DNA of 64,000 nt, from the NCBI GenBank assembly GCA_003154195.1, contig PMCS01000030.1, positions 123,446 to 187,445 on the forward strand. Direction: 5' to 3'. Positions 4,285 through 64,000 of the stretch are shown here, piece by piece. The notes under the pieces are model-generated. The model saw nothing but the letters and a program-made list of their open reading frames with translations, made no database searches and was not told the origin of the DNA. Positions within the stretch are counted from its first letter, which is position 1. Every line of letters begins with the position of its first letter. A program made the translations under genes and the position numbers. The stretch is from Candidatus Omnitrophota bacterium (lineage in GTDB: Bacteria > Omnitrophota > Gorgyraeia > Duberdicusellales > 4484-171).

Positions 4285-4358
4285 ACAAGCACAGATGATC
4301 ACTGATTGAATGAAGCAGATGATCGCTGAAAAAGCTTGAAACCGTTATCGCAAAAAAT

Positions 4359-7443: not shown

Positions 7444-7818
7444 ATGTTAAAATTCAGTAAATCTCATGAATGGGCGAAGATAGACGGCAGTACGGCAATG
7501 ATGGGGATTACCGATTACGCCCAACATTCGCTGGGTGATATTGTTTTTGTGGAATTACCTAAAGCGGGGACAAAGGTAACCCAGTCCGGCCGTTTAGGGA
7601 CAATCGAATCGACCAAGGCAGCCAGTGAATTATATTCGCCAATATCCGGGGAAGTTATTGAGGTTAACAAAGAGCTCGCCGGCAAGCCTCAGCTGGTAAA
7701 TGAAGACCCTCTCGGCAGGGGTTGGATGATTAAAATTAAAATAGCTAATCAGAAAGAAAGCGAAGGTTTAATGGACGAAGCGCAGTATAGAGAGTTTGTA
7801 GAAAAAGAAAAACATTAA
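7444..7818 (+). CDS. gcvH: glycine cleavage system H protein
   Basis: Lipoyl-lysine context ESTKAASELYSPISGEV. The RBS AAGGGGGT precedes ATG 7444; the ORF track TTG at 7411 was rejected. Confidence 0.9.
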   Translation: MLKFSKSHEWAKIDGSTAMMGITDYAQHSLGDIVFVELPKAGTKVTQSGRLGTIESTKAASELYSPISGEVIEVNKELAGKPQLVNEDPLGRGWMIKIKIANQKESEGLMDEAQYREFVEKEKH

Positions 7819-7948
7819 ATAACCTAAAAACTGAAAAACTGAAGAAGTAAGAAAAAGATATAAAACTAGTTTCAGTTTCATGGTTTTTATATTTTCTAGT
7901 TTTTAGTTCTTCAGTTTTTAGGTTTTTACGTTTTTTGGTGCATTAATT

Positions 7949-10846: not shown

Positions 10847-10904
10847 GCATTTTATCTGCGATCATCTGTATCCTCTAATCAGCAATAATCTGTGTTTATA
10901 AAAT

Positions 10905-11723: not shown

Positions 11724-11759
11724 GCGGATGGCGGATATTTTTTTGCGAAGCAACCCCTT

Positions 11760-11990
11760 CGCTTCGCTCAGGGGTAATTCGACTATCCCCTGCGGGGATA
11801 GTTCAACTACAGACATTTGCTTCACCTTCGGCTTGCAAATGTCTAAGTTTCACTACAGCCTCGCTGAACATGAGTACATGTTCACTCGGCTAAGTCTCAA
11901 ACCCCTTCGCTAATGCTTCAGGGGTAATTCGACTACAGCCTCGCTGAACATGAGTACATGTTCACTCGGCTAAGCCTCATTAAAATATGC
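11760..11990. repeat. Two tandem copies of the dispersed repeat family C (GGGGTAATTCGACTAC ... CGGCTAAG(T/C)CTCA)
   Basis: A near-identical roughly 75-bp unit occurs at 11861-11921 and 11924-11988. It is related to the copies at 63690-64000, 17640-17770 and 41705-41790. Confidence 0.5.
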
Positions 11991-16055: not shown

Positions 16056-17645
16056 ATGGTTATTCCTGAGCATACCTTGGGCGGATTGAGGGAGAAAAGA
16101 TTGAGAAAATATATTATTACGGCGATTTGTTTATGCATCGCTTTTTTACCGGAGGCGGGATTGCCGCAAGGGGATGTCGATAATATTTATGGCGATTATG
16201 CCATCGGCAAATCTCCCCAAAAAGTTTCCCTGGATCTTAGGGCCGCGAATCTTAATGATGTGTTAAAGATGCTTTCTCGGCAAACCGGCCTTAATTTTGT
16301 TTCCACGGAAACAGTTAAGGAGAGAGTCTTGACTCTGTATATGGATAATGTTCCCTTAAAAGAGGCGATGGATATAATTTTTAAGGCGAATAATTTAGGC
16401 TATGATTTTTATCCGGAAGCGAAGGTATTCGTGGTCAAGGAGCTGGGCAATCCTGCTATTGAAGTAAAAACCAAAGTTTACTATTTAAAATATATAACCG
16501 TCAATTCTTCGAACGTAAAAAGCGTTATTTCCGCCGGCGGCGAAACGGCAAAGACTCCCGGGGGCGGCGGGGGGCCAGGCGGCGGAGCTTCTTCCAGGGG
16601 CGGGGGCGCAGCGGCCGGCGGTTCGGGCGGCAGCCTTACGGATTCATTGAAGAACATGATGAGCGAATTTGGCAAGATATCGGAAGACCCGTTGACCAAC
16701 TCTTTGATTATTACCGATATCCCTACGCGCTTTCCTTTAATCGAGGAGTTGCTTTCCAAGCTGGATGTGCCTATCCCGCAGGTGATGATTGAAGTGGAGA
16801 TGCTTGATGTTTCCAGGGGGCTTATCGATCAATTAGGATTTAATTTTACCAACGGGTTTATCGCTACTTTTACGCCGGGGGGGTTCAGCACGCCATTCCC
16901 GTTGAAGGCTAAAGATAACTTCAACCTGGTTAATAAATTTTCTCCTATTTCTAATCTTGGCACGCCTGGTGGTCTTTTGAGCAACCTTGACTTCAGCAGT
17001 ATGCAAATGGTTATGCAATTTTTGAATAAAGACACTTCAACACGATTCTTAGCCCGGCCCAGGATATTGACTCTGGTTAATGAAAGCGCGGAAGTGGATT
17101 TAACGATGGATGAAGTAGTGAGCGCGGTGGGTACAAGTTCTCAAGGGACCGGACCAGCGGTAACTACTACTACGATTGAGCGAAAAGAAACCGGCACCAA
17201 GCTGACGGTTACTCCCCAGGTTAATCTGGAGACCGGGGAGGTTATCATGTCGCTGAACGTGAGCAACAAAGAATCGAAGATTTCAACCCTTACAGCAGCG
17301 ACTAAAGACATTGAAACGCGCGGCACAAAATCCATGGTACGCTTAAAAGACGGCGATACTCTTTTAATCGGCGGCCTCATCCGGAAAACCGACGAAGATG
17401 CTGTTACGAAAATTCCTTTTATTTCCGAGATACCGGTTTTGGGCAGGTTATTCCGGTATAAAAACACCAATCATACCGAACGTGAACTTTGCGTTTTCTT
17501 AACTCCGCATATAATAATCCCCTCAGCCGGTTCTTCTCCGGAGATTAAAAAGGAAGTTTTCCCTAAAGAAAGTTTTCAAAGGGAACAGGCCAACTACGCT
17601 AAGCAGGATGCCGTAAGGTCTTCGCTGGATAAATTCTCCCGTTAA
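16056..17645 (+). CDS. pilQ: type IV pilus secretin PilQ
   Basis: C-terminal secretin domain (LLIGGLIRKTDEDAVTKIPFISEIPVLGRLF), secretin-N domains and a Gly-rich linker. Confidence 0.85.
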   Translation: MVIPEHTLGGLREKRLRKYIITAICLCIAFLPEAGLPQGDVDNIYGDYAIGKSPQKVSLDLRAANLNDVLKMLSRQTGLNFVSTETVKERVLTLYMDNVPLKEAMDIIFKANNLGYDFYPEAKVFVVKELGNPAIEVKTKVYYLKYITVNSSNVKSVISAGGETAKTPGGGGGPGGGASSRGGGAAAGGSGGSLTDSLKNMMSEFGKISEDPLTNSLIITDIPTRFPLIEELLSKLDVPIPQVMIEVEMLDVSRGLIDQLGFNFTNGFIATFTPGGFSTPFPLKAKDNFNLVNKFSPISNLGTPGGLLSNLDFSSMQMVMQFLNKDTSTRFLARPRILTLVNESAEVDLTMDEVVSAVGTSSQGTGPAVTTTTIERKETGTKLTVTPQVNLETGEVIMSLNVSNKESKISTLTAATKDIETRGTKSMVRLKDGDTLLIGGLIRKTDEDAVTKIPFISEIPVLGRLFRYKNTNHTERELCVFLTPHIIIPSAGSSPEIKKEVFPKESFQREQANYAKQDAVRSSLDKFSR

Positions 17646-17849
17646 TTCGGCTACTGTCTCAATCTACGCCCCCGCCATCCCATAGATGGCGAGGTCTCGT
17701 CAATTCGTTTAACGAATTGACGGACTTCGGGCTTGATTTCGGTGAAGTCTCATTAAATATTTCCTTGCCCCCCGTAGTATTTCTATTATAATAAAATATA
17801 ACCTGGAATATAATTATAAAGCATAGAGTTCTCTTTTCAGGATATCGGG

Positions 17850-19751: not shown

Positions 19752-19799
19752 TAAAAATAACATAAAAACCAAAAAACTGAAAAACCAAAAAACTTAACA

Positions 19800-20174
19800 A
19801 TGAGCGATATTTTTAGATTCAGAGAATTTCCGGTATATAAAGACGCAAGAAAATTGAGAAAAGATTTAAAGCTGCTAAGTAAAGAAAAATTCCCCGGAAC
19901 CGAACAATATTGTTTAACATCTCAGTTGTGGAGAGCATTGGATTCGATTATTCTCAATATAGCCGAGGGTTCAGACAGATGTTCAGATACGGATTTCAGT
20001 AGATTTTTAAACAATTCCTTAACCTCCGTTAATGAAGTAGCCGCCCGTTTGGATTGTGCTTTAGATGATGGCTATATTACTGTAAAAGAGCAAGACATAT
20101 TTATTCCCTTGGCTGAAAATATTGCGAAACAGCTAAAGGCTTTTAGTTCAAAAGTACGAAATGATAATGGTTAG
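19800..20174 (+). CDS. four-helix-bundle protein (23S rRNA intervening-sequence protein family)
   Basis: 124 aa. The YKDARKL...FPGTEQYCLTSQLWRALDSIILNIAEGSDR...FLNNSLTSVNEVAARLDCALDDGYI pattern matches PF05635-type proteins. It is flanked by inverted A/T-rich repeats at 19752-19799 and 20175-20215. Confidence 0.7.
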   Translation: MSDIFRFREFPVYKDARKLRKDLKLLSKEKFPGTEQYCLTSQLWRALDSIILNIAEGSDRCSDTDFSRFLNNSLTSVNEVAARLDCALDDGYITVKEQDIFIPLAENIAKQLKAFSSKVRNDNG

Positions 20175-20215
20175 TTTCTCGGTTTTTAAGTTTTTTCGTT
20201 TTTAGGTTACCTACC

Positions 20216-40924: not shown

Positions 40925-41719
40925 ATGGTTTTTGAAAAAATCGCCAAAAAAGTTTTTATCCGGTATCTGTTATTTGCCATCTGCTTTCTGTCTTTATGCG
41001 GGTGCGCTACCGAGTATAATACCGGGACTCATAAGGAAGATTGGATTTTTTATTCGACGGAGAGCGAGGTTTCGATGGGGCTGGCAATCTCCCGGGCAAT
41101 CGCTAAAGACAAGGAAATGAAAATATCCAATGACCCCATCGATATAAAACGCGTCAATAGAATCGGCGATAAGATAGCTGAAGTTTGCGACCGGAGCGAA
41201 TTGACTTATTATTTTTATGTGCTCTTGGACGAGAAAGAGGTAAATGCTTTTAGCCTTCCCGGCGGGTATGTGTATATCTTTAAAAAGCTTCTCGATGATT
41301 TAAACGATGATGAGCTGGCGTTTGTCCTGGCGCATGAGGTGGGCCATATTGTATCGCGCCACGCCATAAAGGCATTACAGGCGGCGATAGCGGCTAATGT
41401 TTTGACCCTTGCCGGAGCGTTTGCGCCCGGAGGCAGCGGGGAATTTGCGCAGGGTCTTTCTTTTGCTTTAGCGCAGATCATGGTGGGTTATTCGCGGGAA
41501 GACGAATTCAACGCCGACGAACAGGCGGTAAAGTACACTAAAATATGCGGTTATGACTCTAAGGCCGGGATAAACGTCATGGAAAAACTTTATAAAGAAG
41601 AAAAGAAAACCATAAACCCGATTTCATTTTTTCGGACTCACCCTTATACCGCGCAGCGAATCCGCCATATCAGAGAAACCCTGCATCTCCCGCTTTCTGC
41701 CGCCGACTACCTCAATTAA
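40925..41719 (+). CDS. M48-family zinc metallopeptidase lipoprotein
   Basis: HEVGH (HExxH) motif plus a distal E; lipobox LSLCGC. Confidence 0.8.
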   Translation: MVFEKIAKKVFIRYLLFAICFLSLCGCATEYNTGTHKEDWIFYSTESEVSMGLAISRAIAKDKEMKISNDPIDIKRVNRIGDKIAEVCDRSELTYYFYVLLDEKEVNAFSLPGGYVYIFKKLLDDLNDDELAFVLAHEVGHIVSRHAIKALQAAIAANVLTLAGAFAPGGSGEFAQGLSFALAQIMVGYSREDEFNADEQAVKYTKICGYDSKAGINVMEKLYKEEKKTINPISFFRTHPYTAQRIRHIRETLHLPLSAADYLN

Positions 41720-41790
41720 TGAGGCTTCGCCGAAATCAAGCCCGAAGGGCGCAGATTGAGGCGGTAGCCGAATTACCCAGCACTAATTTT
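41705..41790. repeat. repeat family C copy (inverted orientation)
   Basis: TTAATGAGGCTTCGCCGAAATCAAGCCCGAAGG is the reverse complement of CTTCGGGCTTGATTTCGGTGAAGTCTCATTAA at 17712-17745. Confidence 0.5.
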
Positions 41791-50367: not shown

Positions 50368-50410
50368 GTTATTTTTTTACCACGAAGACACAAAGTCGAG
50401 AAAATCAAAA

Positions 50411-50537
50411 ACCGGTTAAGGTAATGGTAAGGATGCCAGTATAGGTTAGGGTAAAGGTAAAGGCTTTAAAATTAGTATCAGCCTTTACCTTTGCCTTAGC
50501 CCAAACCGGCTTCCTTACCCTAACCCTAACCTTAGTG
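50411..50537. repeat. about 125-bp imperfect palindrome built from GGTAAGG / GGTTAGGGT short repeats (family B)
   Basis: Arms GGTTAAGGTAATGGTAAGG...GGTTAGGGTAAAGGTAAAGGC and GCCTTTACCTTTGCCTTAGCCC...CCTTACCCTAACCCTAACC. Confidence 0.55.
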
Positions 50538-50604: not shown

Positions 50605-52710
50605 ATGGCGCGTAAATATCCGTTGGAAAAAATCAGGAATATCGGAATCGTGGCGCATATCGACGCCGGTAAAACTACTACTACCGAGCGGGTGCTTTTC
50701 TATACGGGAAAATCTCATAAGTTGGGAGAGGTCCATAACGGCAGCGCGGTTATGGATTGGATGAAGCAGGAACAGGAAAGAGGAATCACTATTACCAGCG
50801 CTGCTACTACTTGTTTCTGGCAAGATTGCAGTATTACTATCATTGATACTCCCGGGCATGTCGATTTTACTGCGGAGGTGGAAAGGAGTTTACGCGTTCT
50901 TGACGGAGCGGTCGTTCTTTTTTGTGCCGTAGGCGGCGTAGAGCCGCAGAGTGAAACAGTGTGGCGCCAGTCGCAGAAATATAATGTCCCCAAGGTTGTT
51001 TTTATTAATAAAATGGATCGAGTGGGGGCTGATTTTTTTATGGTTTTAAAAGAAATACAGCATAATCTGGGCGCTAACGCCATACCTTTGCAGGTTCCTA
51101 TTGGGGCAGAAGAGAATTTTCGCGGCGTGATTGACTTGATCGAGATGAAGGCTTATATCTATGAAGAAGATTCATTGGGCAAGGAGTTTCGTATAGAAGA
51201 TATTCCTGCGGATTTAATAGCGATCGCTAAAGAATACAACCATAAGACTGTGGAAAAAGCCGTGGAGCTTGATGACAAATTGATGGAAAAGTATCTTGAG
51301 TCACAGGAATCGATTACCCCCGAAGAATTAAAAGCGGCAATCCGTAAAGGAACGGTTGCCAACAAGGTTGTTCCGGTGATCTGCGGCGCGTCTTTTAAAA
51401 ATAAAGGCGTACAGAAACTCCTTGACGCGATTATCGATTATCTTCCTTCGCCGGCGGATTTACCGCCGGTTACCGGCCACGATCCCCGGGATACCGATAA
51501 GCAGCTCGTCAGAAGTTGCGACGATAAGGAACCGTTCAGCGCGTTGGCGTTCAAAGTCCAGGCTGATTCTCACATGGGAAAACTTGTTTATTTGCGTGTT
51601 TATTCCGGCAGTCTTCCCGCCGGTACCTATATTACTAATGCCACAAAAGATAAAAAAGAAAGAATCAGCAGGATCTTCCAGATGCATGCCAACCAGCGCC
51701 AGTCTCAAGCTGAAGTTAATGCCGGCGATATTGTAGCGGTGGTAGGTTTGGAAGATACGATAACCGGCGATACTCTTTGTGATGAAAATAATCCGGTTAT
51801 ATTAGAGGCGATAGAATTTCCTACCCCGGTTATTTCCATAAGCGTCGCGCCTAAGACGCGCGCCGACCAGGATAAGCTGGGTAAGGGATTAATGCGGCTG
51901 GCAGAAGAAGACCCCACGTTCAATGTCGAGTCGGACCAGGAAACCAATGAAACTATTCTTTCCGGCATGGGCGAGCTACACCTGGAGATAATTGTCGACC
52001 GCTTAAAGCATGAATTCGGCGTTGAGGCTATCGTGGGTAAGCCTAAGGTTGCCTATAAGGAAACGATTACTCATAGCGTTGAAGAGGAATATAAGCACAT
52101 TAAGCAGTCCGGCGGCCGCGGCCAATACGGGCATGTTATTTTAAAGCTTGAGCCGGCCGATCCCGAGACCGGTTTCGAATTTATCAATGCCGTGGTAGGA
52201 GGAAGGATCCCCCGCGAATACATTCCGGCCGTAGAAAAAGGCGTAATCGAAGCGATGAAAGAAGGCGCTTATGCCGGCTATCCGGTTGTGGACGTGAAAG
52301 TCACGCTGCTCGATGGTTCATTCCACGAAGTTGATTCCAGCGAGATAGCCTTTAAGATTGCCGCCATCACTTGCTTCAAGAAAGCTTTCTTAAGGTGTTC
52401 TCCAATTTTACTTGAGCCGGAAATGTCTATGGAAATAATTTCTCCCCGAGATTTTGCCGCCAATATCGTCGGCAATCTTTGTTCCCGCCGGGGAAAAGTT
52501 TTAGGCATGGAGGAAAAGGTCGGCCAGCAAGTTATCGCTGCCAACGCTCCGCTTTCGGAGCTATTCGGTTATACTACCACTTTGCGTTCGCTTTCCAGCG
52601 GCCGCGCCAACTATTCGATGCACTTCGAAAAATACGTCCCCGTGCCGTTTGCCATCGCCGAAGCCGTAAGGGAAGAACGGGCAAAAGAAAAAGCGGCGCG
52701 TAACAAATAG
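50605..52710 (+). CDS. fusA: translation elongation factor G
   Basis: G domain [17 protein letters not shown] and NKMD motifs. 701 aa. Confidence 0.95.
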
Positions 52711-52869
52711 GTTATTTTTTACGCAGTAAAAAATAACCTTGGACCGCTGGCGCGGATCGGGAAAGTTCCGGTTCAGGCATTTTTCCCGGTTTGGCAAACT
52801 CTTTCAAAATACCTCAACTCCCCGAGTCAAATCAATCCGGGAAAATCGATAACCCTTTATTCTCCTTCG

Positions 52870-53000
52870 CTGAAGTTCGCCTTCGCCAAGACTTCGGCGA
52901 GATTCCTCCGAAGCTCGAAGAGCGAAGGAGAACTTCGGCGAAATCTCTCCGAAGCTAAAAAAAAGCGAAGGAGGACTTCGGAGAAATGAAGCTATATGTC
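52870..53000. repeat. three roughly 40-bp tandem direct repeats (CTTCGGCGAGATTCCTCCGAAGCT... variants)
   Basis: Each unit carries a GAAG...CTTC hairpin. A family A-like palindrome GGTTATTTTTTACGCAGTAAAAAATAACC lies at 52711-52740. Confidence 0.5.
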
Positions 53001-53053
53001 GCGGGGAGGAAATTTGGGCTTCATTATTTTCTCCTTGGTGGTAAAATCTTATT

Positions 53054-53878
53054 GTGATTATTACCGATAAAAATAAAAATATTCTTTATCGCAAATGGGT
53101 GGCCGGCAACACGAAGGAGGTATTTCTCCTGGTGCACGGCCTGGGTGGCCATAGCGAGCGCTGGGAAGAATTTGCGAAGTTCTTTTTGTCTTACGGCATA
53201 AGTTCTTACGCGATAGAATTGAGGGGTTTCGGCGAAACACCGGAACTTAAAGGGCATATCCCGTCATTTGAACAATATTACGGCGATATCCTTGCTCTCT
53301 GCCAAGTAATAAGGAATGAAAACCCGGATAAGAAGATTTTTCTGGCCGGGGAAAGCCTGGGTGGTTTACTTGCTTTTAAAATATCCTGCCGGTATTGGGA
53401 TTTTTTTAGCGGGTTGGCCTGTATCGCTCCGGTTTTTTCCGACAGATTAAAGGCTTCGCTGTTGGAGTATTTGCGGGTATTCTTTGCTCTTTTTTTTAAT
53501 CCCCGCAGACAATTCATCGTTCCTTTAGACGCGGCGATGCTTACGCGTGATCCCGTTTATCAGGAAAAGCTAGATACCGACAGCCGGGAGCATCGTTTTG
53601 TCACCAGCCGGATGATTTTTAATATCTTTGCCTTGCAGGCGCAAACACGATTTTCTAAAAACACCATCAAGCTGCCGGTATTGTTTTTGCTGGCCGGGGA
53701 TGACCGGGTAGTCAAGAATAGCGCCGGCCGGAAAGTTTTTGAGCGTTTGCAGTCGGAGGATAAAACCATAATCGAATATCCCGGCGCGCGCCACGCGCTT
53801 TCCATCGATTCGGACCGGGATAAAATGTTTAAGGATATTCTGGAGTGGGTGAGGCAAAGGCTGAAGGATGAGGGATGA
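53054..53878 (+). CDS. alpha/beta hydrolase (lysophospholipase / monoacylglycerol lipase-like)
   Basis: GESLGG nucleophile elbow and an HGLGGHSERW motif. GTG start. Confidence 0.7.
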   Translation: MIITDKNKNILYRKWVAGNTKEVFLLVHGLGGHSERWEEFAKFFLSYGISSYAIELRGFGETPELKGHIPSFEQYYGDILALCQVIRNENPDKKIFLAGESLGGLLAFKISCRYWDFFSGLACIAPVFSDRLKASLLEYLRVFFALFFNPRRQFIVPLDAAMLTRDPVYQEKLDTDSREHRFVTSRMIFNIFALQAQTRFSKNTIKLPVLFLLAGDDRVVKNSAGRKVFERLQSEDKTIIEYPGARHALSIDSDRDKMFKDILEWVRQRLKDEG

Positions 53879-53899
53879 GAGAAGAAGGACGAAAGAATA

Positions 53900-54045
53900 G
53901 TGTTGGAGTGTCAGAGAAAAACCGAAGGACGTGGGACGTCCGCGGTAGTAACCGCTGGGACGAAGGACGAGCGTCAAAGTGTCAGGGCGTCAGAGCGGTT
54001 TTTAACTATGACGCTGTGACGCTATGACACTTTGACACTATAATA
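53900..54045. repeat. palindromic short-repeat element (GTCAAAGTGTCAGGGCGTCAGAGCG / CGCTGTGACGCTATGACACTTTGAC)
   Basis: Inverted arms built from GTCA/GACG-type short repeats. Confidence 0.45.
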
Positions 54046-54057
54046 ATTGCGGTGATT

Positions 54058-55539
54058 ATGGAGTATATCTTAGCCATTGACCAGGGGACGACCGGCAGCC
54101 GTGCTGTTGTCTACGATAAATACGGGAAAAAAATCGCCGCTTCTTATCATGAATTTAAACAGTATTTTCCCCGGCCCGGCTGGGTTGAGCATAATCCGCG
54201 GGAAATCTGGCAAAGCGTAAACAATTCTATCCAGGAAGTCCTTAAAGACATTCCCGCCGCTTCGATCGCCGCAATCGGTATTACCAACCAGCGTGAAACA
54301 ACAATCGTCTGGGACAAGGATACCGGTAAGCCCGTCTACAATGCCATTGTCTGGCAGTGCCGGCGTACTGCCGCGGCTTGTGACGCGTTGAAAAATAAAA
54401 GAGGCGAAGGGGAATTTTTCCGTTCGCGCACCGGCCTGCCGATTGACGCTTATTTCAGCGCGACCAAGCTGGCCTGGATCCTGAAAAATGTCCCCGGCGC
54501 TTTGCCTAAAGCAAAAAAAGGAAAACTTCTATTCGGCACAACCGACAGCTGGGTTTTATGGCAATTGACCGGCGCCATGGTTCACGCCACTGATTATACC
54601 AATGCCGGCCGCACCATGCTGTTTAATATCAACAAATTAGAGTGGGATAAGGATATTCTTGGTAAATTCAATATCCCTTCGCTAATACTGCCGCGGGCTT
54701 TGCCGTCTTCGGGCATCTTCGGCGTAAGCGCTAAAATTGGAAGACTGGGGCAGGGCATCCCCATATCTGGTATTGCCGGTGACCAGCAGGCGGCATTATT
54801 CGGCCAGGCCTGTTTCGCGCCGGGTACGCTGAAGAATACCTATGGCACCGGGGCATTTATGCTGCTCAATACCGGCAAAAACCGGCCGGTCTCAAAATAC
54901 GGCTTGATCACTACTCTTGCCTGTGGCCCGCAAGCGGAGCCGGTTTATGCCTTGGAGGGATCAATCTTTATCGCCGGCGCGGCAATCCAGTGGCTGCGCG
55001 ACGGGCTTAAGATTTTAGACAAAGCTTCCCAGTCGCAGGATTTAGCGTTAGCGTTAAAAGACAATGAAGGCGTATATTTTGTCCCGGCGTTGACCGGCCT
55101 GGGCGCGCCTTATTGGGACCAGAATGCCCGGGGCCTGATAAATGGTATCACGCGGGGAACCACTCGCCAGCACCTGGCGCGGGCGGCGCTGGAAGCGATG
55201 TGCTACCAGACTATGGACGTGATGACGGCGATGAAAAAAGACAGCGGCTTGAGCATAAAAGATTTGAAGATTGACGGCGGCGCGTCCGCCAACGATTTTT
55301 TATGCCAGTTCCAGGCGGATATCTCCGGGGTAAATGTCCTGCGTCCGCGGGTCATCGAGACTACTTCCCTGGGCGCGGCGTACCTGGCGGGTTTGGCCGT
55401 AGGGTATTGGAAAAATACCGGCGAGATTAAAAAATGCTGGCGGCTCGACCGCGTTTTTAAGCCGAAGATGCAAAGAGCGCAAGCGCGTAAGTTCTACGAA
55501 GGGTGGCAGGGGGCGGTAGCCAAGACGTTAACTATTTGA
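54058..55539 (+). CDS. glpK: glycerol kinase
   Basis: FGGY family. N-terminus YILAIDQGTTGSRAVVYD. Confidence 0.9.
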   Translation: MEYILAIDQGTTGSRAVVYDKYGKKIAASYHEFKQYFPRPGWVEHNPREIWQSVNNSIQEVLKDIPAASIAAIGITNQRETTIVWDKDTGKPVYNAIVWQCRRTAAACDALKNKRGEGEFFRSRTGLPIDAYFSATKLAWILKNVPGALPKAKKGKLLFGTTDSWVLWQLTGAMVHATDYTNAGRTMLFNINKLEWDKDILGKFNIPSLILPRALPSSGIFGVSAKIGRLGQGIPISGIAGDQQAALFGQACFAPGTLKNTYGTGAFMLLNTGKNRPVSKYGLITTLACGPQAEPVYALEGSIFIAGAAIQWLRDGLKILDKASQSQDLALALKDNEGVYFVPALTGLGAPYWDQNARGLINGITRGTTRQHLARAALEAMCYQTMDVMTAMKKDSGLSIKDLKIDGGASANDFLCQFQADISGVNVLRPRVIETTSLGAAYLAGLAVGYWKNTGEIKKCWRLDRVFKPKMQRAQARKFYEGWQGAVAKTLTI

Positions 55540-55548
55540 TCAGTCGGT

Positions 55549-55932
55549 TTGGGCAGAAATGTTGTATTTTTGTCGCGCTCCCGCAATTTTGACATCAATT
55601 GTGTCGACCCGATACAAAATAATAAAATATCCAATAATCATGAAATAAATCATAGCGGGCGGACACACCGGTCCGCCCTTACAATATCCGGTATAATCCA
55701 ATGGTTTAAAACAATGACAACGAATAAATATATTCAAAATATCGAAAATAATAATTGGTCGTCATTTGTCAAATGTCTATGGCAACGTAATTTCCACGAC
55801 CATGTTATACGTAACGACAAATCGTTGGGTAAAATCCGGGAATATATAATCAATAATCCTGCAACCTGGAATAATGATATTGAAAATCCCGATAGAACAG
55901 GCAGTATGGAATCAAAATTGATTGAGGTTTAA
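55549..55932 (+). pseudogene. remnant (C-terminal part) of a REP-associated tyrosine transposase (RayT / IS200-like HUH family)
   Basis: IQWFKTMTTNKYIQN...WQRNFHDHVIRNDKSLGKIREYIINNPATW matches the characteristic RayT C-terminal segment. No N-terminal HUH motif is present, so the gene is truncated. Confidence 0.45.
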
Positions 55933-55992
55933 CCAACTTATCCAGCGGATTTTTGCGTCAGACAAAATATGTAAAATAAAAATTAAAAATTT

Positions 55993-57420
55993 ATGCTTTA
56001 CGACGTTATCATCATCGGCGGCGGAGTGGCGGGGACGGCAATCGCGCGGGAGTTATCGCGGTTCCGGATATCAACCGCTCTTTTAGAAAAGGAAGAAGAG
56101 CTCGCTTTTGGCGTTTCTAAATCCAATAGCGGTATCATCCACCCGGGGACGCAGAATCCACCCGGTTCTTTAAAGGGGCAGCTTTGCGTATGGGGGAACC
56201 GGCTGACCAGGGAAATTGCCGGAGAACTGGGCGTTGATTTTAAGGAAGTGGGAGAATTAATCGTCGCGTTTAACCAGGGAGAGCTCGCGCAGCTGCAGCA
56301 GATTAAAAAAGACGCGCAAGCCCTGGGCGTGCCGCGCTTGAAAATCGTCAACCGCGCCTGGCTCGATAAAAACGAACCCAATCTTTCGCGGGAAGCGATC
56401 GCCGCGCTTTACGCGCCTACCGCGGGGATCATCAGCCCCTATCGGCTGGTTTACGCTTTAGCCGCCGACGCTTTAGCTAACGGCGTGGAAATTTTTACGC
56501 GGGCAAAAGTGCAGAATATCCGGCGTAAGGGCGACTGTTTCGAGGTTCATACCACGCGCGGCATTTTCGACGGCCAATATATCGTTAATGCCGCCGGGCT
56601 TTTTGCCGACGAAGTGGCGGCAATGGCCGGCGCCGGTAATTTTACGATCACCCCGCGTAAAGGCGAAGAATTTTTGTTGGATAAAAAATGCCGCGATTTA
56701 ACCAACCACCTTATTTTTCCTTTGCCATCAAAGGCTTCCAAGGGTATTCTGGTTATAAAGACAAGCGACGGCAATCCGATGATCGGCCCGACTGCCTGCG
56801 AGGCGGCCGGCAAAGATGATTTATCGACTACCGATGAGGGGTTGGCGAATGTTCTGGCGGCGGCAAAAAAACTGGTTCCCTCAATCGACGGAAAGGATAT
56901 CATCGCTTACTTCGCGGGATTGCGTCCTATCGCGGGGGATGATTTTATCATTCGCGCCGAAGAAGGCGAGCGGAAATTTATTAATGTCGCCGGTATCCAG
57001 TCGCCGGGGTTGACCGCGGCGCCGGCAATTGCGATTGTTGTGATCGAGACCTTAAACAAAAACGGCTTGGCCTTTAAACGAAAATCTCTTTTTAAGCAAA
57101 ACTGTGTGGAACCCGGCCATTTGTTTTCCGTACCGTTGGCGAAGACAAAAGAATTCATCGAGAAAGACCCGGCTTACGGCGATATCGTTTGCCGCTGCGA
57201 ACTTGTTTCGGCCAAAGAGATAAAAGATGCCGTATCTGCCGGCGCGGCAACGCTGGACGGTATAAAATTCCGCACCCGCGCCCAGGCCGGACGCTGCCAT
57301 GGGAGTTTTTGCACGACCAGGATCATGAAAATTTTGGCTGAGAGTACAAATAAAAAATTAACAGAAATTACCAAACGTGGCAAAGGGTCGGAGATCGTGA
57401 AGGGGGATAGAGGTGGATAG
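55993..57420 (+). CDS. FAD-dependent oxidoreductase, GlpA-like (anaerobic glycerol-3-phosphate dehydrogenase subunit A-like), with a C-terminal BFD-like [2Fe-2S] domain
   Basis: DVIIIGGGVAGTAIA motif; C-terminal CRCELVSAKEIKDAV...CHGSFC. Confidence 0.75.
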   Translation: MLYDVIIIGGGVAGTAIARELSRFRISTALLEKEEELAFGVSKSNSGIIHPGTQNPPGSLKGQLCVWGNRLTREIAGELGVDFKEVGELIVAFNQGELAQLQQIKKDAQALGVPRLKIVNRAWLDKNEPNLSREAIAALYAPTAGIISPYRLVYALAADALANGVEIFTRAKVQNIRRKGDCFEVHTTRGIFDGQYIVNAAGLFADEVAAMAGAGNFTITPRKGEEFLLDKKCRDLTNHLIFPLPSKASKGILVIKTSDGNPMIGPTACEAAGKDDLSTTDEGLANVLAAAKKLVPSIDGKDIIAYFAGLRPIAGDDFIIRAEEGERKFINVAGIQSPGLTAAPAIAIVVIETLNKNGLAFKRKSLFKQNCVEPGHLFSVPLAKTKEFIEKDPAYGDIVCRCELVSAKEIKDAVSAGAATLDGIKFRTRAQAGRCHGSFCTTRIMKILAESTNKKLTEITKRGKGSEIVKGDRGG

Positions 57421-57435
57421 TAAAAAGTAATAATC

Positions 57436-57568
57436 GGCTAAGGCTAAGGTTATGAAGCCGGTATAGGTAAAGGTGAGGGTTAGGGCTTAAAACAATTTTT
57501 TAGCCTTAACCTTGACCCTAACCCTAACCTATACGGGCATCATTACCCTTACCCTAACCATTTTGTAT
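57436..57568. repeat. about 130-bp imperfect palindrome of GGCTAAGG / GGTTAGGG / CCCTAACC short repeats (family B)
   Basis: Arms GGCTAAGGCTAAGGTTATG...GGTGAGGGTTAGGGC and GCCTTAACCTTGACCCTAACCCTAACC...CCCTTACCCTAACC. Confidence 0.55.
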
Positions 57569-57610
57569 ACTATGCCGGCGTCGTAACCATAGCCTTTACC
57601 GGAGTATATT

Positions 57611-58618
57611 ATGTTAACTCGTGATTTGGTGATTATCGGTGGTGGCCCGGCAGGAATGGCGGCGGCAATTTCCGCGCAGGAAGCCGGCGTAAAAAATATC
57701 CTGTTGCTGGAGCGTGACCAATTCCTGGGGGGGATATTGAACCAGTGTATCCATACCGGTTTCGGGCTGGATTATTTTAAGGAAATCTTGACCGGGCCGG
57801 AATATGCCGGCCGTTTCATCGAACGCGTGGAAAAAAATAAGGAGATAGAAGTAAGTTTAAAATCTTTTGCGGTCAGCTTGACAAGAGACAAGGAAATTAC
57901 TTATTTAAAACCCGGAAAATTGGAGCAGCTGAAAGCTAAAGCGATTATCATGGCTACGGGTTGCCGTGAGAAAACCCGCGAGATGATTCATATCCCGGGA
58001 ACCCGGCCGGCGGGGATTTTCAGCGCGGGATTGGCGCAAAAACTTATCAATATCGAAGGGTTATTGCCCGGCAAAGAAGCGGTGATCGTGGGCAGCGGCG
58101 ATATCGGTTTAATCATGGCGCGCCGTTTTATTTTAGAGGGAGCAAAAGTAAACGCGGTCGTGGAAATACAGGACAAAAGCCGGGGGCTATTGCGCAATAT
58201 CGTACAGTGCCTGGAAGATTTCGATATACCTATATATTATAACCATAAAATCTCTCAAGTCTACGGTAAGGACAGGGTCGAGGCGGTTGATGTAGTTAAG
58301 GTTGACGCCGGCAATAATGAAATAGCCGGTTCAAAGTCAAAGTTGGCATGTGACACTCTGCTTGTTTCGGTAGGATTGATTCCCGAAAACGAATTAATCG
58401 AAATGGCCGGGGTTGCTCTCGATAAAAAAACCAATTCGCCGATAGCGGACGGCGTAAACAAAACGTCGCTCCCGGGCATTTTCGCCTGCGGGAATTGTTT
58501 TAAAGTTTACGATCTGGTAGATAACGTCACTAAAGATGCGGAGCTGGCGGGACGAATGGCGGCGGAATATCTTAATCAGGAAAATACCGCTTCCGACATT
58601 TTACCGATATGGGAATAA
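57611..58618 (+). CDS. NAD(P)/FAD-dependent pyridine-nucleotide-disulfide-type oxidoreductase (second component of the GlpA-like module)
   Basis: Two Rossmann motifs: VIIGGGPAGMAAA and VIVGSGDIGLIMA. Confidence 0.7.
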   Translation: MLTRDLVIIGGGPAGMAAAISAQEAGVKNILLLERDQFLGGILNQCIHTGFGLDYFKEILTGPEYAGRFIERVEKNKEIEVSLKSFAVSLTRDKEITYLKPGKLEQLKAKAIIMATGCREKTREMIHIPGTRPAGIFSAGLAQKLINIEGLLPGKEAVIVGSGDIGLIMARRFILEGAKVNAVVEIQDKSRGLLRNIVQCLEDFDIPIYYNHKISQVYGKDRVEAVDVVKVDAGNNEIAGSKSKLACDTLLVSVGLIPENELIEMAGVALDKKTNSPIADGVNKTSLPGIFACGNCFKVYDLVDNVTKDAELAGRMAAEYLNQENTASDILPIWE

Positions 58619-58638
58619 ATTTTAAAAAGATAATTTTT

Positions 58639-59004
58639 ATGAATAATATAACTAAAAAATTGACCTGTATCGAATGTCCTAAGGGCTGCGCTTTGACGAT
58701 CGATATCCAGAAAGGCAAGGTTGTCGGGGTTTCCGGCAATACCTGTCCCAAGGGTGATGATTATGCCCGGGTTGAGGTGGAAAACCCGATGCGTATTCTT
58801 ACGGCAACCGTGTTGGCGCAAGGGTTAGCGCTTAAGGTGATACCGGTTAAAACCAGCGGCCCGATCGCGAAAGCCAAGATAAAAGACGCGTTGAGCCGGA
58901 TTAAAAAACTTAAGATAACCATGCCGGTTAAAACCGGTGATTGTCTCGTGGAAAATTTTTTGGGGGCGGGGGTAAACTTGGTGGTAACGCGCCATTGTGC
59001 TTAA
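58639..59004 (+). CDS. DUF1667-domain protein (third component of the GlpA-like module)
   Basis: CIECPKGC ... CPKGDDY cysteine motifs. Start at ATG 58639; the ORF track start overlaps the upstream stop. Confidence 0.6.
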   Translation: MNNITKKLTCIECPKGCALTIDIQKGKVVGVSGNTCPKGDDYARVEVENPMRILTATVLAQGLALKVIPVKTSGPIAKAKIKDALSRIKKLKITMPVKTGDCLVENFLGAGVNLVVTRHCA

Positions 59005-59075: not shown

Positions 59076-62000
59076 ATGATGAATAAAAAAATAATAACCG
59101 GCCGGATGTTATTTTGCGCATTAGCGCTGTGCCTGGTTGCTGTTTTTCAGGTTTTCGCGGAAAATATTATCTTGAAATCCGGGCGCGTAATCAACAAGCC
59201 CGTTATCGAGAAAGGTTACGATTTTATAAAAATCGATTTTGACGAAACGGTTTTAAAATTCTATTATTACGAGATTGCCAGCATTGATGGTAAGAGCGTT
59301 GAGATATTTACCGCGCCCGCCGAACAAACCGCCCAAGAAATTCCTGCCGCGGCTAACGCCGGAGAAGGAACCGCTAACCCCGAACCCGTAAAGAAAGAAA
59401 CGGCAGATAAAGATAAGCAAACGGTTGAGTCGCCGGCAGAAGGGCAAAGCGCAAAAAGCGCAGGGGAAAGCGTAAAACCGGAAATTTCCGAAAAAGATAA
59501 AGAAGCCGCCGATGCCGGGCAGCAAGCCCCGGCGTTATTTCCTGCGCCGGTGAGCGAAAAAGTTACGGCGCAAATTACAGTTTCTCCTGATTCTCACGGC
59601 GGCAGCCTCGCGGAAGAAATAGAAGTTCTTAAAAGAGAAATCAAGGATAAAGAAGATGAGCTGGCGCGGTTGAAGGCGGATTCGGCGGAAAAAGATAAGC
59701 TCACCGCTTTGTTGAAAGAACAGAATGAAGCGTTCGCGGCAAAAGAAAAAGACATTTTTTCCGGTACCGTTCGTTTCAACGATGAAATAAGCCGTTTATC
59801 CCAGGAGCTCGAGGCGGTTAAGAAATCGTTAAGGGATAAGGAGGACGATTTGGCGCAGGAAAAAAGCCTTTCGTCCGATAAGGATAAGCTTATCGCCGGT
59901 TTAAAAGAGCAGGTCTCCGCTTTTTCTTCCACGGAGCAGGAGCTGAATACTACTCTCAACCGGGCCAATTCCGGCATGATCGGCCTTGCCGAGGAATTGC
60001 AGGGATTTAAGAAAAGCCTTAAGGAAAAAGAAGCGGCGCTTGAGGAAATGAAACAACAGGCAGGGGGAAAGGACAGGGCTCTCGCTCATTTGCAGGAAAA
60101 AGCCAATTCGGCGGCAGATAAAGAAAAAAATTTCGATTCTTCCCTGGACGAAGCCGGCAGGAAAATTGCCGAACTTACAAAAAATAATGAAACCCTGACA
60201 GCCGATTTAAACGCGAAAAGCGCAAACCTTAATGAAGAGGCGGCAAAGATTTCCCGGAAGGATAAGATTATCGAAGACCTCAGCGCCAGGCAGGCCATCC
60301 TTTCGGAAAAAGAAAAAGAAAGTACCGATATTATAAATAAACTTAACGTTCAGCTCTCCGGTTTGTCCCGGGATATCGCTTCGTTTAAAAACGGCCTTGA
60401 GGCGAAAGATAATCATTTGCGCGAAAACGAAGGAAAATTTATCGCTAAGGACGAGCTTATCGCGAACCTCGCGGAAAAAAATAAAACTTTATCCGAGAAG
60501 GAAAAGCAATTGGCTGAGAACCTCGCGCGGGTAAACGCTGACTTAGGAAATATTTCCCGGGAAAGGGAAGCGTTAAGAAAAAGCGCCGGGGAAAAAGAGG
60601 CGGCGTTATCCCGTCTTGATAAAGATTTCTCCGATTTGTCGGCAAGAGAAAAAAATCTTAACGCGCAATCGGCAAAATCAAACGCCGTCGCTGAGAGCCT
60701 GGCAAATAATATCGATTCGTTGAAGAAGGAGCTCGGCGTAAAAGATAATGTTATCAACGAAATAAACGCTAAGTCAAAGGATAAAGACGCCGTCATCGTT
60801 TCCCTGCAGGAAACCAACGCGCAGTTTGCCGAAAAAGAAAAGGGATTGTCTTCTTCTCTGGCCCAGGCGGGGCTTAGCCTTTCCAATTTTTCCCAGGAAG
60901 TCGGCGCCCTTAAAAAAGTGATTCAAGCTAAAGATGACGCCATCCGGCAGGAAAAAGACCAATCCGCCGCAAAAGATAAACTTATCGCTTCGTTGAGCGC
61001 GCAGAATGAAAATATTCTCCGGAAGGAGGCGTTGATTGAGTCGAATTTCGATAAAGCGGGAGAAAGCATTTCTGCGCTTACGAAAGAAATGGAAACTCTT
61101 AAGAAAGACTTAAGCGCCGCGGAATTCCGCTACAAAGATGAAGTGGCACGTTCCCTGGAAAAAGATAATTCGCTCGAAGCCTTGAAAGCGCAGAGCGCCG
61201 CTGTAATCAAAAAGAACGACGAATATGAAACGACCGCCCGGGCGCTTAATTCAAAGCTGGAGAGTTTATCCAGGGAGATGGAAGATGTAAAAAATGAATT
61301 GGCGTTAGAGAAATCCCGTTCGCGGGATAAAGATAAACTGATTGTTGCCTTTAAAGATGAAAATGTGCGCGTTCTTTTAAGCGAGAAGGAATTATCCGCT
61401 AAATTTGACCGGGCCAATTCGCGCGCCGGCATTTTAGAAAAAACTTGCGGTGAAAAAGACGCTCAAGCAATCCAAAAAGATAATTTAATCGCGGGCTTGC
61501 AGAGTCAGAATAATGTTCTGGCGAAAAAGGCGGAGAGTGTGGCGGTAACGCTCGCGCAATCAAATCTAAGCGTTTCTCATTTCGCTAAGGAACTGGAAAA
61601 TTTTAAGAAAGAATTCAGTTTCCAGGGAGAAGCGATAAAAGCCAAAGACAGCCAGATCTCCCAGAAGGATGCAGCCCTCTCGGAGCTCAGCACTAAGCTC
61701 GCGTCTCTGACCCAGGAAAAGAATAACCAGCTTAACGAAAAGGAAGGTATCATCTCGTCTATTCCGGCAAAAGATAAGCTTATCGAATCTTTAAGGGGGC
61801 AGAATGTTGAATTGTCCAGGAAGAGAGAAGAGCTTAACGCCGAAACAGCCAGGCTTAATTCAGAAACTTCGCGTTTTACCAAAGAGATAGGCGCGCTTAA
61901 AGAAACCCTTGCGTCTAAAGACGCCGTTTTATTCCGGTCGGATGCTCAGGCTGCGGAGAAGGATAAGACTATCGCTTCGCTGAAAGAAGAAGCGGCTGCC

Positions 62001-63680
62001 GCTATTCAGAAAGGCGGCGCGATCACCGGGCTTAAGGGCCAGATCTCCCAGAAGGATGCAGCCCTCTCGGAGCTCAGCACTAAGCTCGCGTCTCTGACCC
62101 AGGAAAAGAAAGCCTTAGACGATACAGCGGCTAAATTAAACTCGGAGATCAGCCGTCTGTCCGGGGACAGAGAAGCTTTGCGAAAAGATAACGAGACTAA
62201 AGATAAATTGCTCAAGGAAAAGAATAACCAGCTTAACGAAAAGGAAGGTATCATCTCGTCTATTCCGGCAAAAGATAAGCTTATCGAATCAAAAGATACA
62301 GCTATCGCCGGTTTACAACAGCGTTTTAATGTTCTTGCGGCGGATAAAGACAGCCTTTTAGGAAAACTTAATGAGGCGGCGAAAAAAATCGATAGTTTAG
62401 AACGATCCACTACTTCTTTGCAAAAAGATACCGCCGGGCGCGAGAGTTTAAATAAGAAACTTCAGGCGCAGATTTCCGTCAACGATGAAGCAATCGCCGC
62501 TTTAAGAAAACAGGCCGATGCCGGCGCGGAAAAAGATAAGTTATTGGCCGTCGGGAAAGAAGAAAGGCAGAAATTTTTACAGAAAGAAAATAATTTGAAA
62601 GAGGAATTAGCTAAAGCCGGTTCCGAGATCAATCGCCTGAATGGAGCGTTGAATACCGGCCGGGGTGATCTTTTAACGCAGAGCGGGCAAATCCAGAAAC
62701 TTGAGGAGCAAGCCGAGGGAAAAGATAAGCTTTTGGCCGCCGCGAATCAACGCAATGACGTTTTATCCCGTAAAGAAAAAGATTCTGCCGCGGCGGTTTT
62801 CCGTTACGAAAATCTTGCTAAAGAGCTTGAGTCGGTAAGAAAAGATTTTGCGGGTAAAGAAACGGCTTATAAAGAAAAGCAGGCAAGATCTTTAGAAAAA
62901 GACAGCTTGATCGCGGAACTTAAGGCGCAAAATGCCAATCTTGCGAAAAAGGAAAACGATATTAACCGGAGTTTCACGAGCGCTAACCTGGAGATCAACC
63001 GTTTGTCGGCCGACCTTGCTGCGGCGCGTAACGAGATTAAATCCAAAGAGGGAATATTACAACGGTTGAGCAATCAGTCGCAGGGCCGGCAGGCGGTTGC
63101 CGCGACGATAAAAGGGCAGCAGCTGGCCGGGGGTTCTTCTCCGTCTAAAAATACCGCCGGTAAGGCCGGCGATAAGAACGAGGCGTTATTCTTATATGAA
63201 GAGATAGGAAGGCTTAACCGTAAGCTGGAAACAGACAGCAATATTTTAAAGGCAAAATACGGCCAGTCTCTGAGAAAAGACAAAGTGATTGACGATTTAA
63301 AAAATGAGATTACCAAAATGATTGATGAGTATAATGATGAGAGTGTGGCAAAAGAAAAAAATGTGGCCCAATTAAATAATCGAATAGCAGCTTTATCGAA
63401 AAGCAAACAAGATTTAGCCGGCGAGCTTGACGCGGTTACCGACGAAATCGGCCGTCTTACTGCCGCTTTCGTCGAGGAAAGCAAAACCGAAGATTCATCG
63501 AAGTTTTCCGGAGAAGCGCCAGCCGGCGCCGGCCGGTTGCGGAACATCTCCCGGTTAATTGAAGAAAAAGATAAGCAGATTGGGGAAAAAGAGAAACAAA
63601 TAGAATATTTAAAGAAAGTTATTGCCGACGTGATGGCAAAAATGAAGGTTGCTTCCGGCGGGGATTCGGCCGGCAGGTAA
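59076..63680 (+). CDS. giant (1534 aa) secreted coiled-coil repeat protein
   Basis: Signal peptide and a small N-terminal domain, then a Glu/Lys/Ala-rich region with more than 20 degenerate repeats carrying (E)KDKLIAxLKxQN motifs. Exact internal DNA duplications (61653-61789 versus 62040-62110 plus 62218-62288). Confidence 0.7.
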   Translation: MMNKKIITGRMLFCALALCLVAVFQVFAENIILKSGRVINKPVIEKGYDFIKIDFDETVLKFYYYEIASIDGKSVEIFTAPAEQTAQEIPAAANAGEGTANPEPVKKETADKDKQTVESPAEGQSAKSAGESVKPEISEKDKEAADAGQQAPALFPAPVSEKVTAQITVSPDSHGGSLAEEIEVLKREIKDKEDELARLKADSAEKDKLTALLKEQNEAFAAKEKDIFSGTVRFNDEISRLSQELEAVKKSLRDKEDDLAQEKSLSSDKDKLIAGLKEQVSAFSSTEQELNTTLNRANSGMIGLAEELQGFKKSLKEKEAALEEMKQQAGGKDRALAHLQEKANSAADKEKNFDSSLDEAGRKIAELTKNNETLTADLNAKSANLNEEAAKISRKDKIIEDLSARQAILSEKEKESTDIINKLNVQLSGLSRDIASFKNGLEAKDNHLRENEGKFIAKDELIANLAEKNKTLSEKEKQLAENLARVNADLGNISREREALRKSAGEKEAALSRLDKDFSDLSAREKNLNAQSAKSNAVAESLANNIDSLKKELGVKDNVINEINAKSKDKDAVIVSLQETNAQFAEKEKGLSSSLAQAGLSLSNFSQEVGALKKVIQAKDDAIRQEKDQSAAKDKLIASLSAQNENILRKEALIESNFDKAGESISALTKEMETLKKDLSAAEFRYKDEVARSLEKDNSLEALKAQSAAVIKKNDEYETTARALNSKLESLSREMEDVKNELALEKSRSRDKDKLIVAFKDENVRVLLSEKELSAKFDRANSRAGILEKTCGEKDAQAIQKDNLIAGLQSQNNVLAKKAESVAVTLAQSNLSVSHFAKELENFKKEFSFQGEAIKAKDSQISQKDAALSELSTKLASLTQEKNNQLNEKEGIISSIPAKDKLIESLRGQNVELSRKREELNAETARLNSETSRFTKEIGALKETLASKDAVLFRSDAQAAEKDKTIASLKEEAAAAIQKGGAITGLKGQISQKDAALSELSTKLASLTQEKKALDDTAAKLNSEISRLSGDREALRKDNETKDKLLKEKNNQLNEKEGIISSIPAKDKLIESKDTAIAGLQQRFNVLAADKDSLLGKLNEAAKKIDSLERSTTSLQKDTAGRESLNKKLQAQISVNDEAIAALRKQADAGAEKDKLLAVGKEERQKFLQKENNLKEELAKAGSEINRLNGALNTGRGDLLTQSGQIQKLEEQAEGKDKLLAAANQRNDVLSRKEKDSAAAVFRYENLAKELESVRKDFAGKETAYKEKQARSLEKDSLIAELKAQNANLAKKENDINRSFTSANLEINRLSADLAAARNEIKSKEGILQRLSNQSQGRQAVAATIKGQQLAGGSSPSKNTAGKAGDKNEALFLYEEIGRLNRKLETDSNILKAKYGQSLRKDKVIDDLKNEITKMIDEYNDESVAKEKNVAQLNNRIAALSKSKQDLAGELDAVTDEIGRLTAAFVEESKTEDSSKFSGEAPAGAGRLRNISRLIEEKDKQIGEKEKQIEYLKKVIADVMAKMKVASGGDSAGR

Positions 63681-63689
63681 TTTAACTAC

Positions 63690-64000
63690 CATTTTCGGGG
63701 ATAGTCCAACTACAAGTATTTTTTTGCGTCTTCGGTACAAATATCTAAATTTCACTAACCCCTTCGCTTCGCTCCGGGGTAATTCAACTACCGTTTCAAT
63801 CTGCGTTCTTCAGGCTTGATAATTCAACTAAGCCCGGAGTACCGGGCAAGTTTCATTACGGCGAAGTTTCAAACTCATTACCCTTCGGCTCCCTTCGGTC
63901 GCTCAGGGTAATTCGACTACAGCCTCTCGCTTCGCTCTTCCAGAGCTTGCGCTCGGCTAAGTCTCATTATAATAAATTGCTGCCCACTTCCGCAAGTTGA
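63690..64000. repeat. repeat family C array (at least three units ending GGGTAATTC(G/A)ACTAC ... CGGCTAAGTCTCATTA)
   Basis: Shares CCCCTTCGCTTCGCTC(A/C)GGGGTAATTCGACTAC and GGGGATAGT(T/C)CAACTACA motifs with 11728-11990. Confidence 0.5.

Follow-up and report, generated by a model that had tools for sequence, protein, structure and literature searches.

A 5′-truncated RAYT gene fragment of TnpA-Y1 subclass 2.4, probably without function, between glpK and a GlpA-like gene of an Omnitrophota bacterium

The stretch of DNA analyzed here (hereafter, the window) spans 64 kb of a contig assigned to Candidatus Omnitrophota. On its plus strand, a frame of 127 amino acids opening with a TTG codon sits between a glycerol kinase gene (glpK) and a gene for a GlpA-like FAD oxidoreductase, exactly where the first-pass annotation had placed it, as confirmed by the open reading frame itself and by the domain matches of its neighbors (Table 1). 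The closest named relatives of the glpK product are GlpK proteins from Omnitrophota, with 72–75% identity, a similarity which identifies the host as a member of this phylum. Neither a plus-strand terminator nor a convincing promoter was found in the glpK–glpA spacer and, judging from the sequence, the frame is probably co-transcribed with the operon. Searches against Rfam returned no match in this region at E ≤ 1 and, across the 64-kb window, three tRNAs only.

Table 1. Features of the locus and multi-copy repeats of the window (positions are those of the window).
Feature	Position	Strand	Remarks
glpK (glycerol kinase)	54052..55539	+	upstream neighbor, complete; FGGY_N/FGGY_C on the identical gene in L001–L005
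Spacer without RAYT homology	55540..55593	+	3′ part = codons 1 to ~15 of the mechanical ORF; alignment A3
Mechanical ORF, 127 aa, TTG start	55549..55932	+	holds the remnant
RAYT-derived DNA	55594..55912	+	C-terminal ~105 codons of a TnpA-Y1 subclass 2.4 gene; blastn, alignment A1, AF2 model mapping
REP1 3′ arm GTCGACCC	55603..55610	+	versus intact GTAGGGGTCGACCGATGTGTCGACCC of L009 (alignments A2/A3); unique in the window
REP2 (internal)	55657..55682	-	8-bp GC-rich hairpin GGGCGGAC-ACACCG-GTCCGCCC at 55657-55678; encodes 'GRTHRSAL'
72-aa gene call P0003 (MTTNKY...)	55714..55932	+	call by metagenome annotators
WQR motif, W78 Q79 R80	55780..55788	+	= W94/Q95 of E. coli TnpA-REP; invariant columns of A1
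Y99 codon	55843..55845	+	counterpart of the catalytic Tyr, Y115 in 4ER8
GlpA-like FAD oxidoreductase gene	55993..57420	+	DAO + Fer2_BFD; downstream neighbor, same operon
AT-rich 25-nt palindrome, copies	1027, 1067, 36626, 39659, 40053, 40103, 46241, 47508, 52712
Modular multi-copy element	11724-11986, 17640-17765, 41712-41785, 63689-63940

Most of the frame is derived from a gene for a REP-associated tyrosine transposase (RAYT). A search of 5.8 billion proteins retrieved 79 relatives, mostly of 190–210 amino acids, with E-values from 8e-4 down to 5.6e-48. The top relative, P0001 (200 amino acids), is 78% identical to the remnant (E 5.6e-48), and a word-indexed protein search found no full-length protein exceeding this identity. 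Profile searches point to the same family: NCBIfam NF047646 (REP_Tyr_transpos) matches residues 45–104 on positions 71–131 of a model of 146 (E 2.8e-9, 37 bits, for an equivalog cut-off of 80), while the profile check proposed by the first-pass annotation, Pfam PF01797 (Y1_Tnp), matches residues 42–103 on positions 61–121 of 121 (E 1.7e-3, 18.9 bits, for a curated cut-off of 23). Both scores are below their cut-offs, which is unsurprising for half a domain; in the Pfam model, the match is confined to the C-terminal half. Moreover, intact relatives themselves reach only 54–68 bits on NF047646, hence this model under-represents the subclass 2.4 to which they belong.

The first-pass annotation had read the frame as a truncated RayT/TnpA-REP gene lacking its HUH N-terminus, with homology in the C-terminal 85 residues. 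This identity is borne out, but the homologous part is longer, with about 105 codons. It begins at residues ~16–18 of the frame ('C VDPIQNNK...') and, from 'CVDPIQNNK' on, is collinear with residues ~92–200 of the full-length proteins (alignment A1). The nucleotide sequence is homologous to three full-length genes from 55594–55600 to ~55912, with 83% identity over 313 nt to L009 (1770–2082), 83% to L114 (822–1119) and 79% to L111 (5271–5558). Upstream of this point, the stretch 'MPNHIHGIINI' and about 75 further N-terminal residues of the homologs, whose HUH motif reads MPNHIHGII in A1, have no counterpart. Indeed, tblastn with 46 N-terminal halves did not find the HUH-bearing ~90 N-terminal codons in the 7-kb slice 52001–59000, and tblastn with all 79 whole homologs found no second significant piece in the 64-kb window. 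When 55540–55593 was aligned locally to the 5′ flanks and N-terminal DNA of L009, L114 and L111, scores stayed at the level of shuffled sequences, with the sole exception of a marginal 17-nt match to the region upstream of L111, and no 3′-flank homology rose above shuffles.

Since P0001 is undetected by Pfam at E ≤ 1e-5, its fold was compared instead. The AF2 model (pLDDT 80.2, pTM 0.75) has exclusively Y1 HUH transposases as its top 30 PDB matches, namely ISDra2, IS608, IS200 and E. coli TnpA-REP (4ER8, TMq 0.52). Projected on this model, the remnant corresponds to residues 92–200, i.e., a linker (pLDDT <50 at 97–114), helix C (120–142), strand 4 (157–161) and the Tyr helix (164–183). The Y1 transposase fold is thus found for full-length P0001 only; the strands spanning residues 22–86 are missing from the remnant and, with them, the HUH (His-hydrophobic-His) metal-binding motif on strand 3. 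Based on this model, the remnant would be unable to form the HUH fold or to cleave DNA and is predicted not to be an active nuclease; we infer that the activity has been lost. What is left carries the functional residues of the C-terminal half. W78, Q79 and R88, all invariant among the homologs, correspond to W94, Q95 and R104 of E. coli TnpA-REP, which recognize GTAG (PMC6006769), and Y99, an invariant residue of A1 located in 'REYIINNP', aligns with the catalytic Y115 of 4ER8. The family profile built from A1 matches one solved structure only, 4ER8 (E 0.0029, versus 0.44 for the remnant alone), in an alignment that takes in HUH as well as WQ...R...Y.

The remnant derives from a RAYT of TnpA-Y1 class 2, subclass 2.4, which is equated with RAYT group 4 of Bertels et al., 2017 (PMC6006769; PMC5581495). 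This placement is based on hallmark features and on the presence of Haemophilus-type (Pasteurellaceae) and cyanobacterial relatives among the matches. Like this subclass, the remnant has the core motifs WQR, IRN and YIxNNP and no conserved C-terminal extension, the frame stopping 28 residues past Y99 as do its relatives of 190–210 residues. [quoted passage not shown] It differs from the subclass in that only the C-terminal ~55% of the gene is present, without the HUH motif and without the conserved N-terminal motif RRSIRL..DYS..YFVT, which the relatives keep upstream of the core, and in that, of its two internal REPs, the first is cut and the second mutated in its foot; besides, Omnitrophota are not among the phyla named as rich in subclass 2.4 (PMC6006769). 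E. coli TnpA-REP (YafM), of RAYT group 2/subclass 2.2, shares its fold with the full-length homolog model and the WQ...R and catalytic Tyr columns with the remnant. It differs in an identity of about 19%, in REPs with bulged stems located on either side of the gene and none within it, and in a shorter HuH–Y distance. The TnpA proteins of IS200/IS605 elements (IS608, ISDra2) share the HUH/Y1 fold and give the best Foldseek E-values (around 7e-7), but they belong to multi-copy autonomous insertion sequences with subterminal hairpins, and full-length relatives score 22–30 bits on the NCBIfam transpos_IS200 model versus 54–68 bits on the REP-associated one.

In the homologous genes, the coding DNA directly 3′ of the HUH motif contains the REPs cognate to this clade, which are GTAG-tagged, GC-rich and built as GTAGGGGCGGAC-loop-GTCCGCCC hairpins; they encode peptides such as VGADxCVxP and GxTHxSAPT. 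Among the metagenome loci examined (80 of at least 583), 58 of the 69 full-length loci carried one or more GT[AG]G hairpins between HUH and WQ, and 50 carried two or more, usually as an inverted pair; the internal pair of L009 folds as an intact REPIN (ΔG −24.6 kcal/mol, z −5.1). In the Pasteurellaceae relatives L012 and L013, the same REP flanks the gene rather than sitting inside it. These in-frame hairpins are not new, having been published in 2018 (PMC6006769). In several homologs (L052 1–300, L074 1–200 and L090 322–650), the in-frame linker has grown into tandem REP pairs or short repeats, such as repeated VGADLCVGP...GAHAGAPL units or GLVPAQ repeated nine times, and evidently this linker tolerates large REP-driven changes in length.

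Both in-frame REPs have left traces in the remnant. Of REP1, only the loop and the 3′ arm persist, the GTAG foot and the 5′ arm being replaced by unrelated sequence, which places the truncation breakpoint inside the internal REP. The REP2 hairpin is complete, with seven GC pairs out of eight, and starts 118 nt past the glpK stop codon. Its 22 nt are identical in L009 and L111 and one base off in L114, in genes which are overall only ~80% identical. Its foot (55679–55682) reads TTAC on the plus strand, i.e., GTAA on the minus strand, instead of the CTAC/GTAG of the intact version present in L009, L111 and L114. This remnant-specific change turns a proline into a leucine (CCT to CTT) in 'SALT'; where RAYT systems have been assayed, cleavage drops severely upon mutation in the last two GTAG positions (PMC8266576).

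Other truncated or internally deleted RAYT copies with usable flanks offered a sample of breakpoints. The 5′ breakpoint falls within about 15 nt of REP1 in the window, in L037, in L115, where homology starts at ...CCCT|GTAGGGGCAGAC..., and in L022 (Shapirobacteria); it adjoins the usual REP position in L083 and L024 and lies elsewhere in L025, L023, L099 and L049. Compared with a uniform expectation, the enrichment at REPs is modest, with a rough binomial p of about 0.03 that is subject to ascertainment caveats. It suggests that internal REPs may be fragile or self-targeted sites, and a mildly new hint from these data is that they may act as recurrent breakpoints. We raise only tentatively, as a possibility with more against it than for it, that subclass 2.4 genes are cut at an internal REP by their own enzyme or by a host nuclease processing hairpins, the C-terminal halves starting at REP1 being a recurrent product and the remnant one of them. 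If general, such breakpoints would represent a built-in route of self-inactivation for subclass 2.4 RAYT elements.

Three Omnitrophota relatives (L105, L107 and L109), whose GlpK is only 74–75% identical to that of the window, have the same gene order, glpK, DAO/Fer2_BFD, Pyr_redox_2 and DUF1667. Their glpK–glpA spacers of 59, 5 and 207 nt contain no RAYT sequence, versus 453 nt in the window, which makes the fragment a lineage-specific insert, in the orientation of the operon. It was found in the same context in eight metagenome contigs from several samples, with 99.9–100% identity; assemblies that sample this population are ERZ27250262, ERZ27247323, ERZ27254220, JGI 3300014494 and those of WOOD18. 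At 0.345, the GC content of the remnant is below that of either flanking gene (0.53 and 0.52) and of each of the 40 long ORFs in the window (0.379–0.532). The nearest full-length RAYT genes are at ~0.31–0.35 GC, one of them in the 0.50-GC contig L111. An AT-rich remnant with AT-rich full-length relatives fits a clade of horizontally moving AT-rich genes, and, by its composition, the remnant resembles a foreign sequence more than a domesticated gene resident in the genome. Composition, together with the comparison to three relatives only ~75% identical in GlpK, hence argues for a horizontal origin. In L111 itself (5001–5573), a full-length RAYT gene of 0.35 GC lies between tgt and a DUF4160 gene, a mismatch with its contig which suggests that this AT-rich clade has recently spread by horizontal transfer. 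The spacers of L105 (4985–5045) and L109 (2479–2685) carry other small palindromic repeats, for instance GTCATTGCGAGCGAAGCGAAGCAATC... and TCATCCCTGCGAAGGCAGGGATC, of kinds common in candidate-phyla genomes, and small elements seem to have landed repeatedly in the glpK–glpA spacer.

Regarding the age of the truncation, neither a stop nor a frameshift interrupts the 111 codons between the beginning of homology at C18 (55600) and the stop codon. Versus the nearest intact gene (L009), dN/dS is 0.22 and dS 0.55. Ten changes are specific to the remnant, three synonymous and seven non-synonymous, as compared to 6:10, 9:9 and 12:14 in intact lineages, all of these numbers being small. Among those at conserved sites are the proline-to-leucine change in the REP foot and an arginine-to-cysteine change just before the invariant WQR. 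The near-identity of the eight contigs leaves no population variation. With an open frame, a low dN/dS and few lineage-specific changes, decay is slight, meaning that the truncation is recent or that some constraint persists; read most simply, the gene would have been truncated fairly recently and had little time to decay.

Taken together, we consider it highly probable that the fragment is a non-functional, 5′-truncated pseudogene fragment of a subclass 2.4/group 4 RAYT. All or part of an AT-rich RAYT gene would have been gained horizontally and would have landed in the short glpK–glpA-like operon spacer of one Omnitrophota lineage. Its first ~90 codons (strands 1–3 and HUH) are missing, with the breakpoint inside the first of the two in-frame REPs. 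The residue, in which a disordered linker encoded by REPs precedes helix C, a single strand and the Tyr helix, would be passively carried. The remnant is an example, in Omnitrophota, of a RAYT fragment probably gained by horizontal transfer, and otherwise ordinary genomic debris of little wider weight.

The first-pass annotation had linked the fragment to the palindromes of the window, implying a decayed copy of the host's own RAYT, spreader of the REP-like families around it. The window is truly rich in intergenic palindromes and hairpins, RAYTs mobilize REPs in other bacteria (PMC8266576) and one family of six copies has a conserved GTAG in a GTAGYYRAATTACCC motif followed by a variable hairpin. 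Yet the architectures of these palindromes are unlike the cognate REP of the clade: hairpins with GTAG at the foot of a GGGNNNNC stem occur nowhere in the 64-kb window outside the remnant, and no cognate GTAG-footed REP flanks it. Using rules close to the published ones, a scan for GT[AG]G-footed hairpins returned 5 in the 64 kb versus a mean of 5.6 in composition-preserving shuffles, i.e., chance frequency. In the six-copy family, GTAG is located 7 nt from the stem, in a larger conserved module, which puts this family outside the rule of 0–2 nt between GTAG and hairpin (PMC6006769). Hosts of active systems, by comparison, show many cognate REPs nearby, with 30 GTAG hairpins in 6.2 kb for L089, and the remnant is a compositionally foreign, lineage-specific insert. 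Absence from 64 kb is no proof for the whole genome, since several intact RAYT loci have no external REPs in their 6–8 kb and only modest repeat counts have been reported for RAYT group 4 (PMC5581495). The link between the remnant and the palindromes is not supported, and descent from a resident mobilizing enzyme appears very unlikely. The intergenic palindromes of the window, not being explained by a RAYT gene, need an explanation of their own. As a side observation, contigs L089, L069 and L059, with intact subclass 2.4 genes, are saturated with cognate GTAG hairpins, none of those of L089 being inside the RAYT gene, in contrast to L009 and L011, in which REPs are internal only.

A co-opted role was likewise weighed, either of the REP hairpin as an intra-operon stabilizer or attenuator of the mRNA, or of a peptide of 72–127 residues binding REP DNA. 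The frame is intact and fixed in eight of the eight contigs sampled, a GC-rich hairpin stands close downstream of glpK, REPs are known downstream of ORFs where they are thought to act on mRNA (PMC3733652), and a peptide retaining W78, Q79, R88 and Y99 would hold the GTAG-recognition residues and the Tyr helix. Nevertheless, no T-run follows the hairpin on the plus strand, the only terminator-like call being on the minus strand, and the fragment, having a single strand of the central sheet, would not fold alone according to the AF2 model. The same arrangement occurs in no independent lineage, conserved positions have been substituted and ribosome-binding evidence is lacking, all of which makes co-option highly improbable. 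As for a chance similarity, or a complete and unrelated small protein, it could draw on the two profile scores lying under the family cut-offs; this reading is refuted by the 79 homologs, by a full-length gene whose DNA is 83% identical over 313 nt and by the collinearity with residues 92–200 of 200-residue proteins of Y1-transposase fold, and retains practically no credibility. A RAYT pseudogene fragment is hence the reading we retain.

Several further repeats were noticed in the window. Near-perfect intergenic hairpins of 100–150 nt lie at 50409–50531, 57436–57564, 53897–54041, 7817–7936, 19756–19800 with 20171–20210, and 4287–4333 with 10851–10897; four of them were folded as single hairpins with RNAfold, reaching −41 to −66 kcal/mol. 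Degenerate tandem units of 6–8 nt, different at each locus (GGTAAGG/GGTTAGG, AGTGTCA/GCGTCA, AAAAACTG and CAGATGATC), make up the arms. These hairpins lack a GTAG or CGTC foot and match nothing in Rfam; a comparable stretch of CTAACCGCTA units is found downstream of the RAYT gene of L009 (2200–2250). An AT-rich perfect palindrome of 25 nt, TTATTTTTT[AG]C-NNN-G[TC]AAAAAATAA, is present in at least eight copies, mostly directly past stop codons and often paired with a short GC hairpin (TCCGCGAAGCGGA), and looks like a lineage-specific, possibly bidirectional, terminator motif. A modular element recurs as well, without Rfam match, in which a conserved TTAATGAGRCTTMGCCG module is followed by a variable hairpin, GAGRCNGTAGYCGAATTACCC and a second variable hairpin; its six GTAG-containing copies are on both strands, some in tandem, with conserved outer sequences and differing inner hairpins. 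Finally, an ORF of 1534 amino acids (59076–63680) has internal repeats beginning AAAGATAAGCTTATCGC..., with start-to-start spacings of 189 nt and other multiples of 3, and two exact duplications of 73–76 nt (61651/62038 and 61714/62215); its product is probably a repetitive coiled-coil or surface protein.
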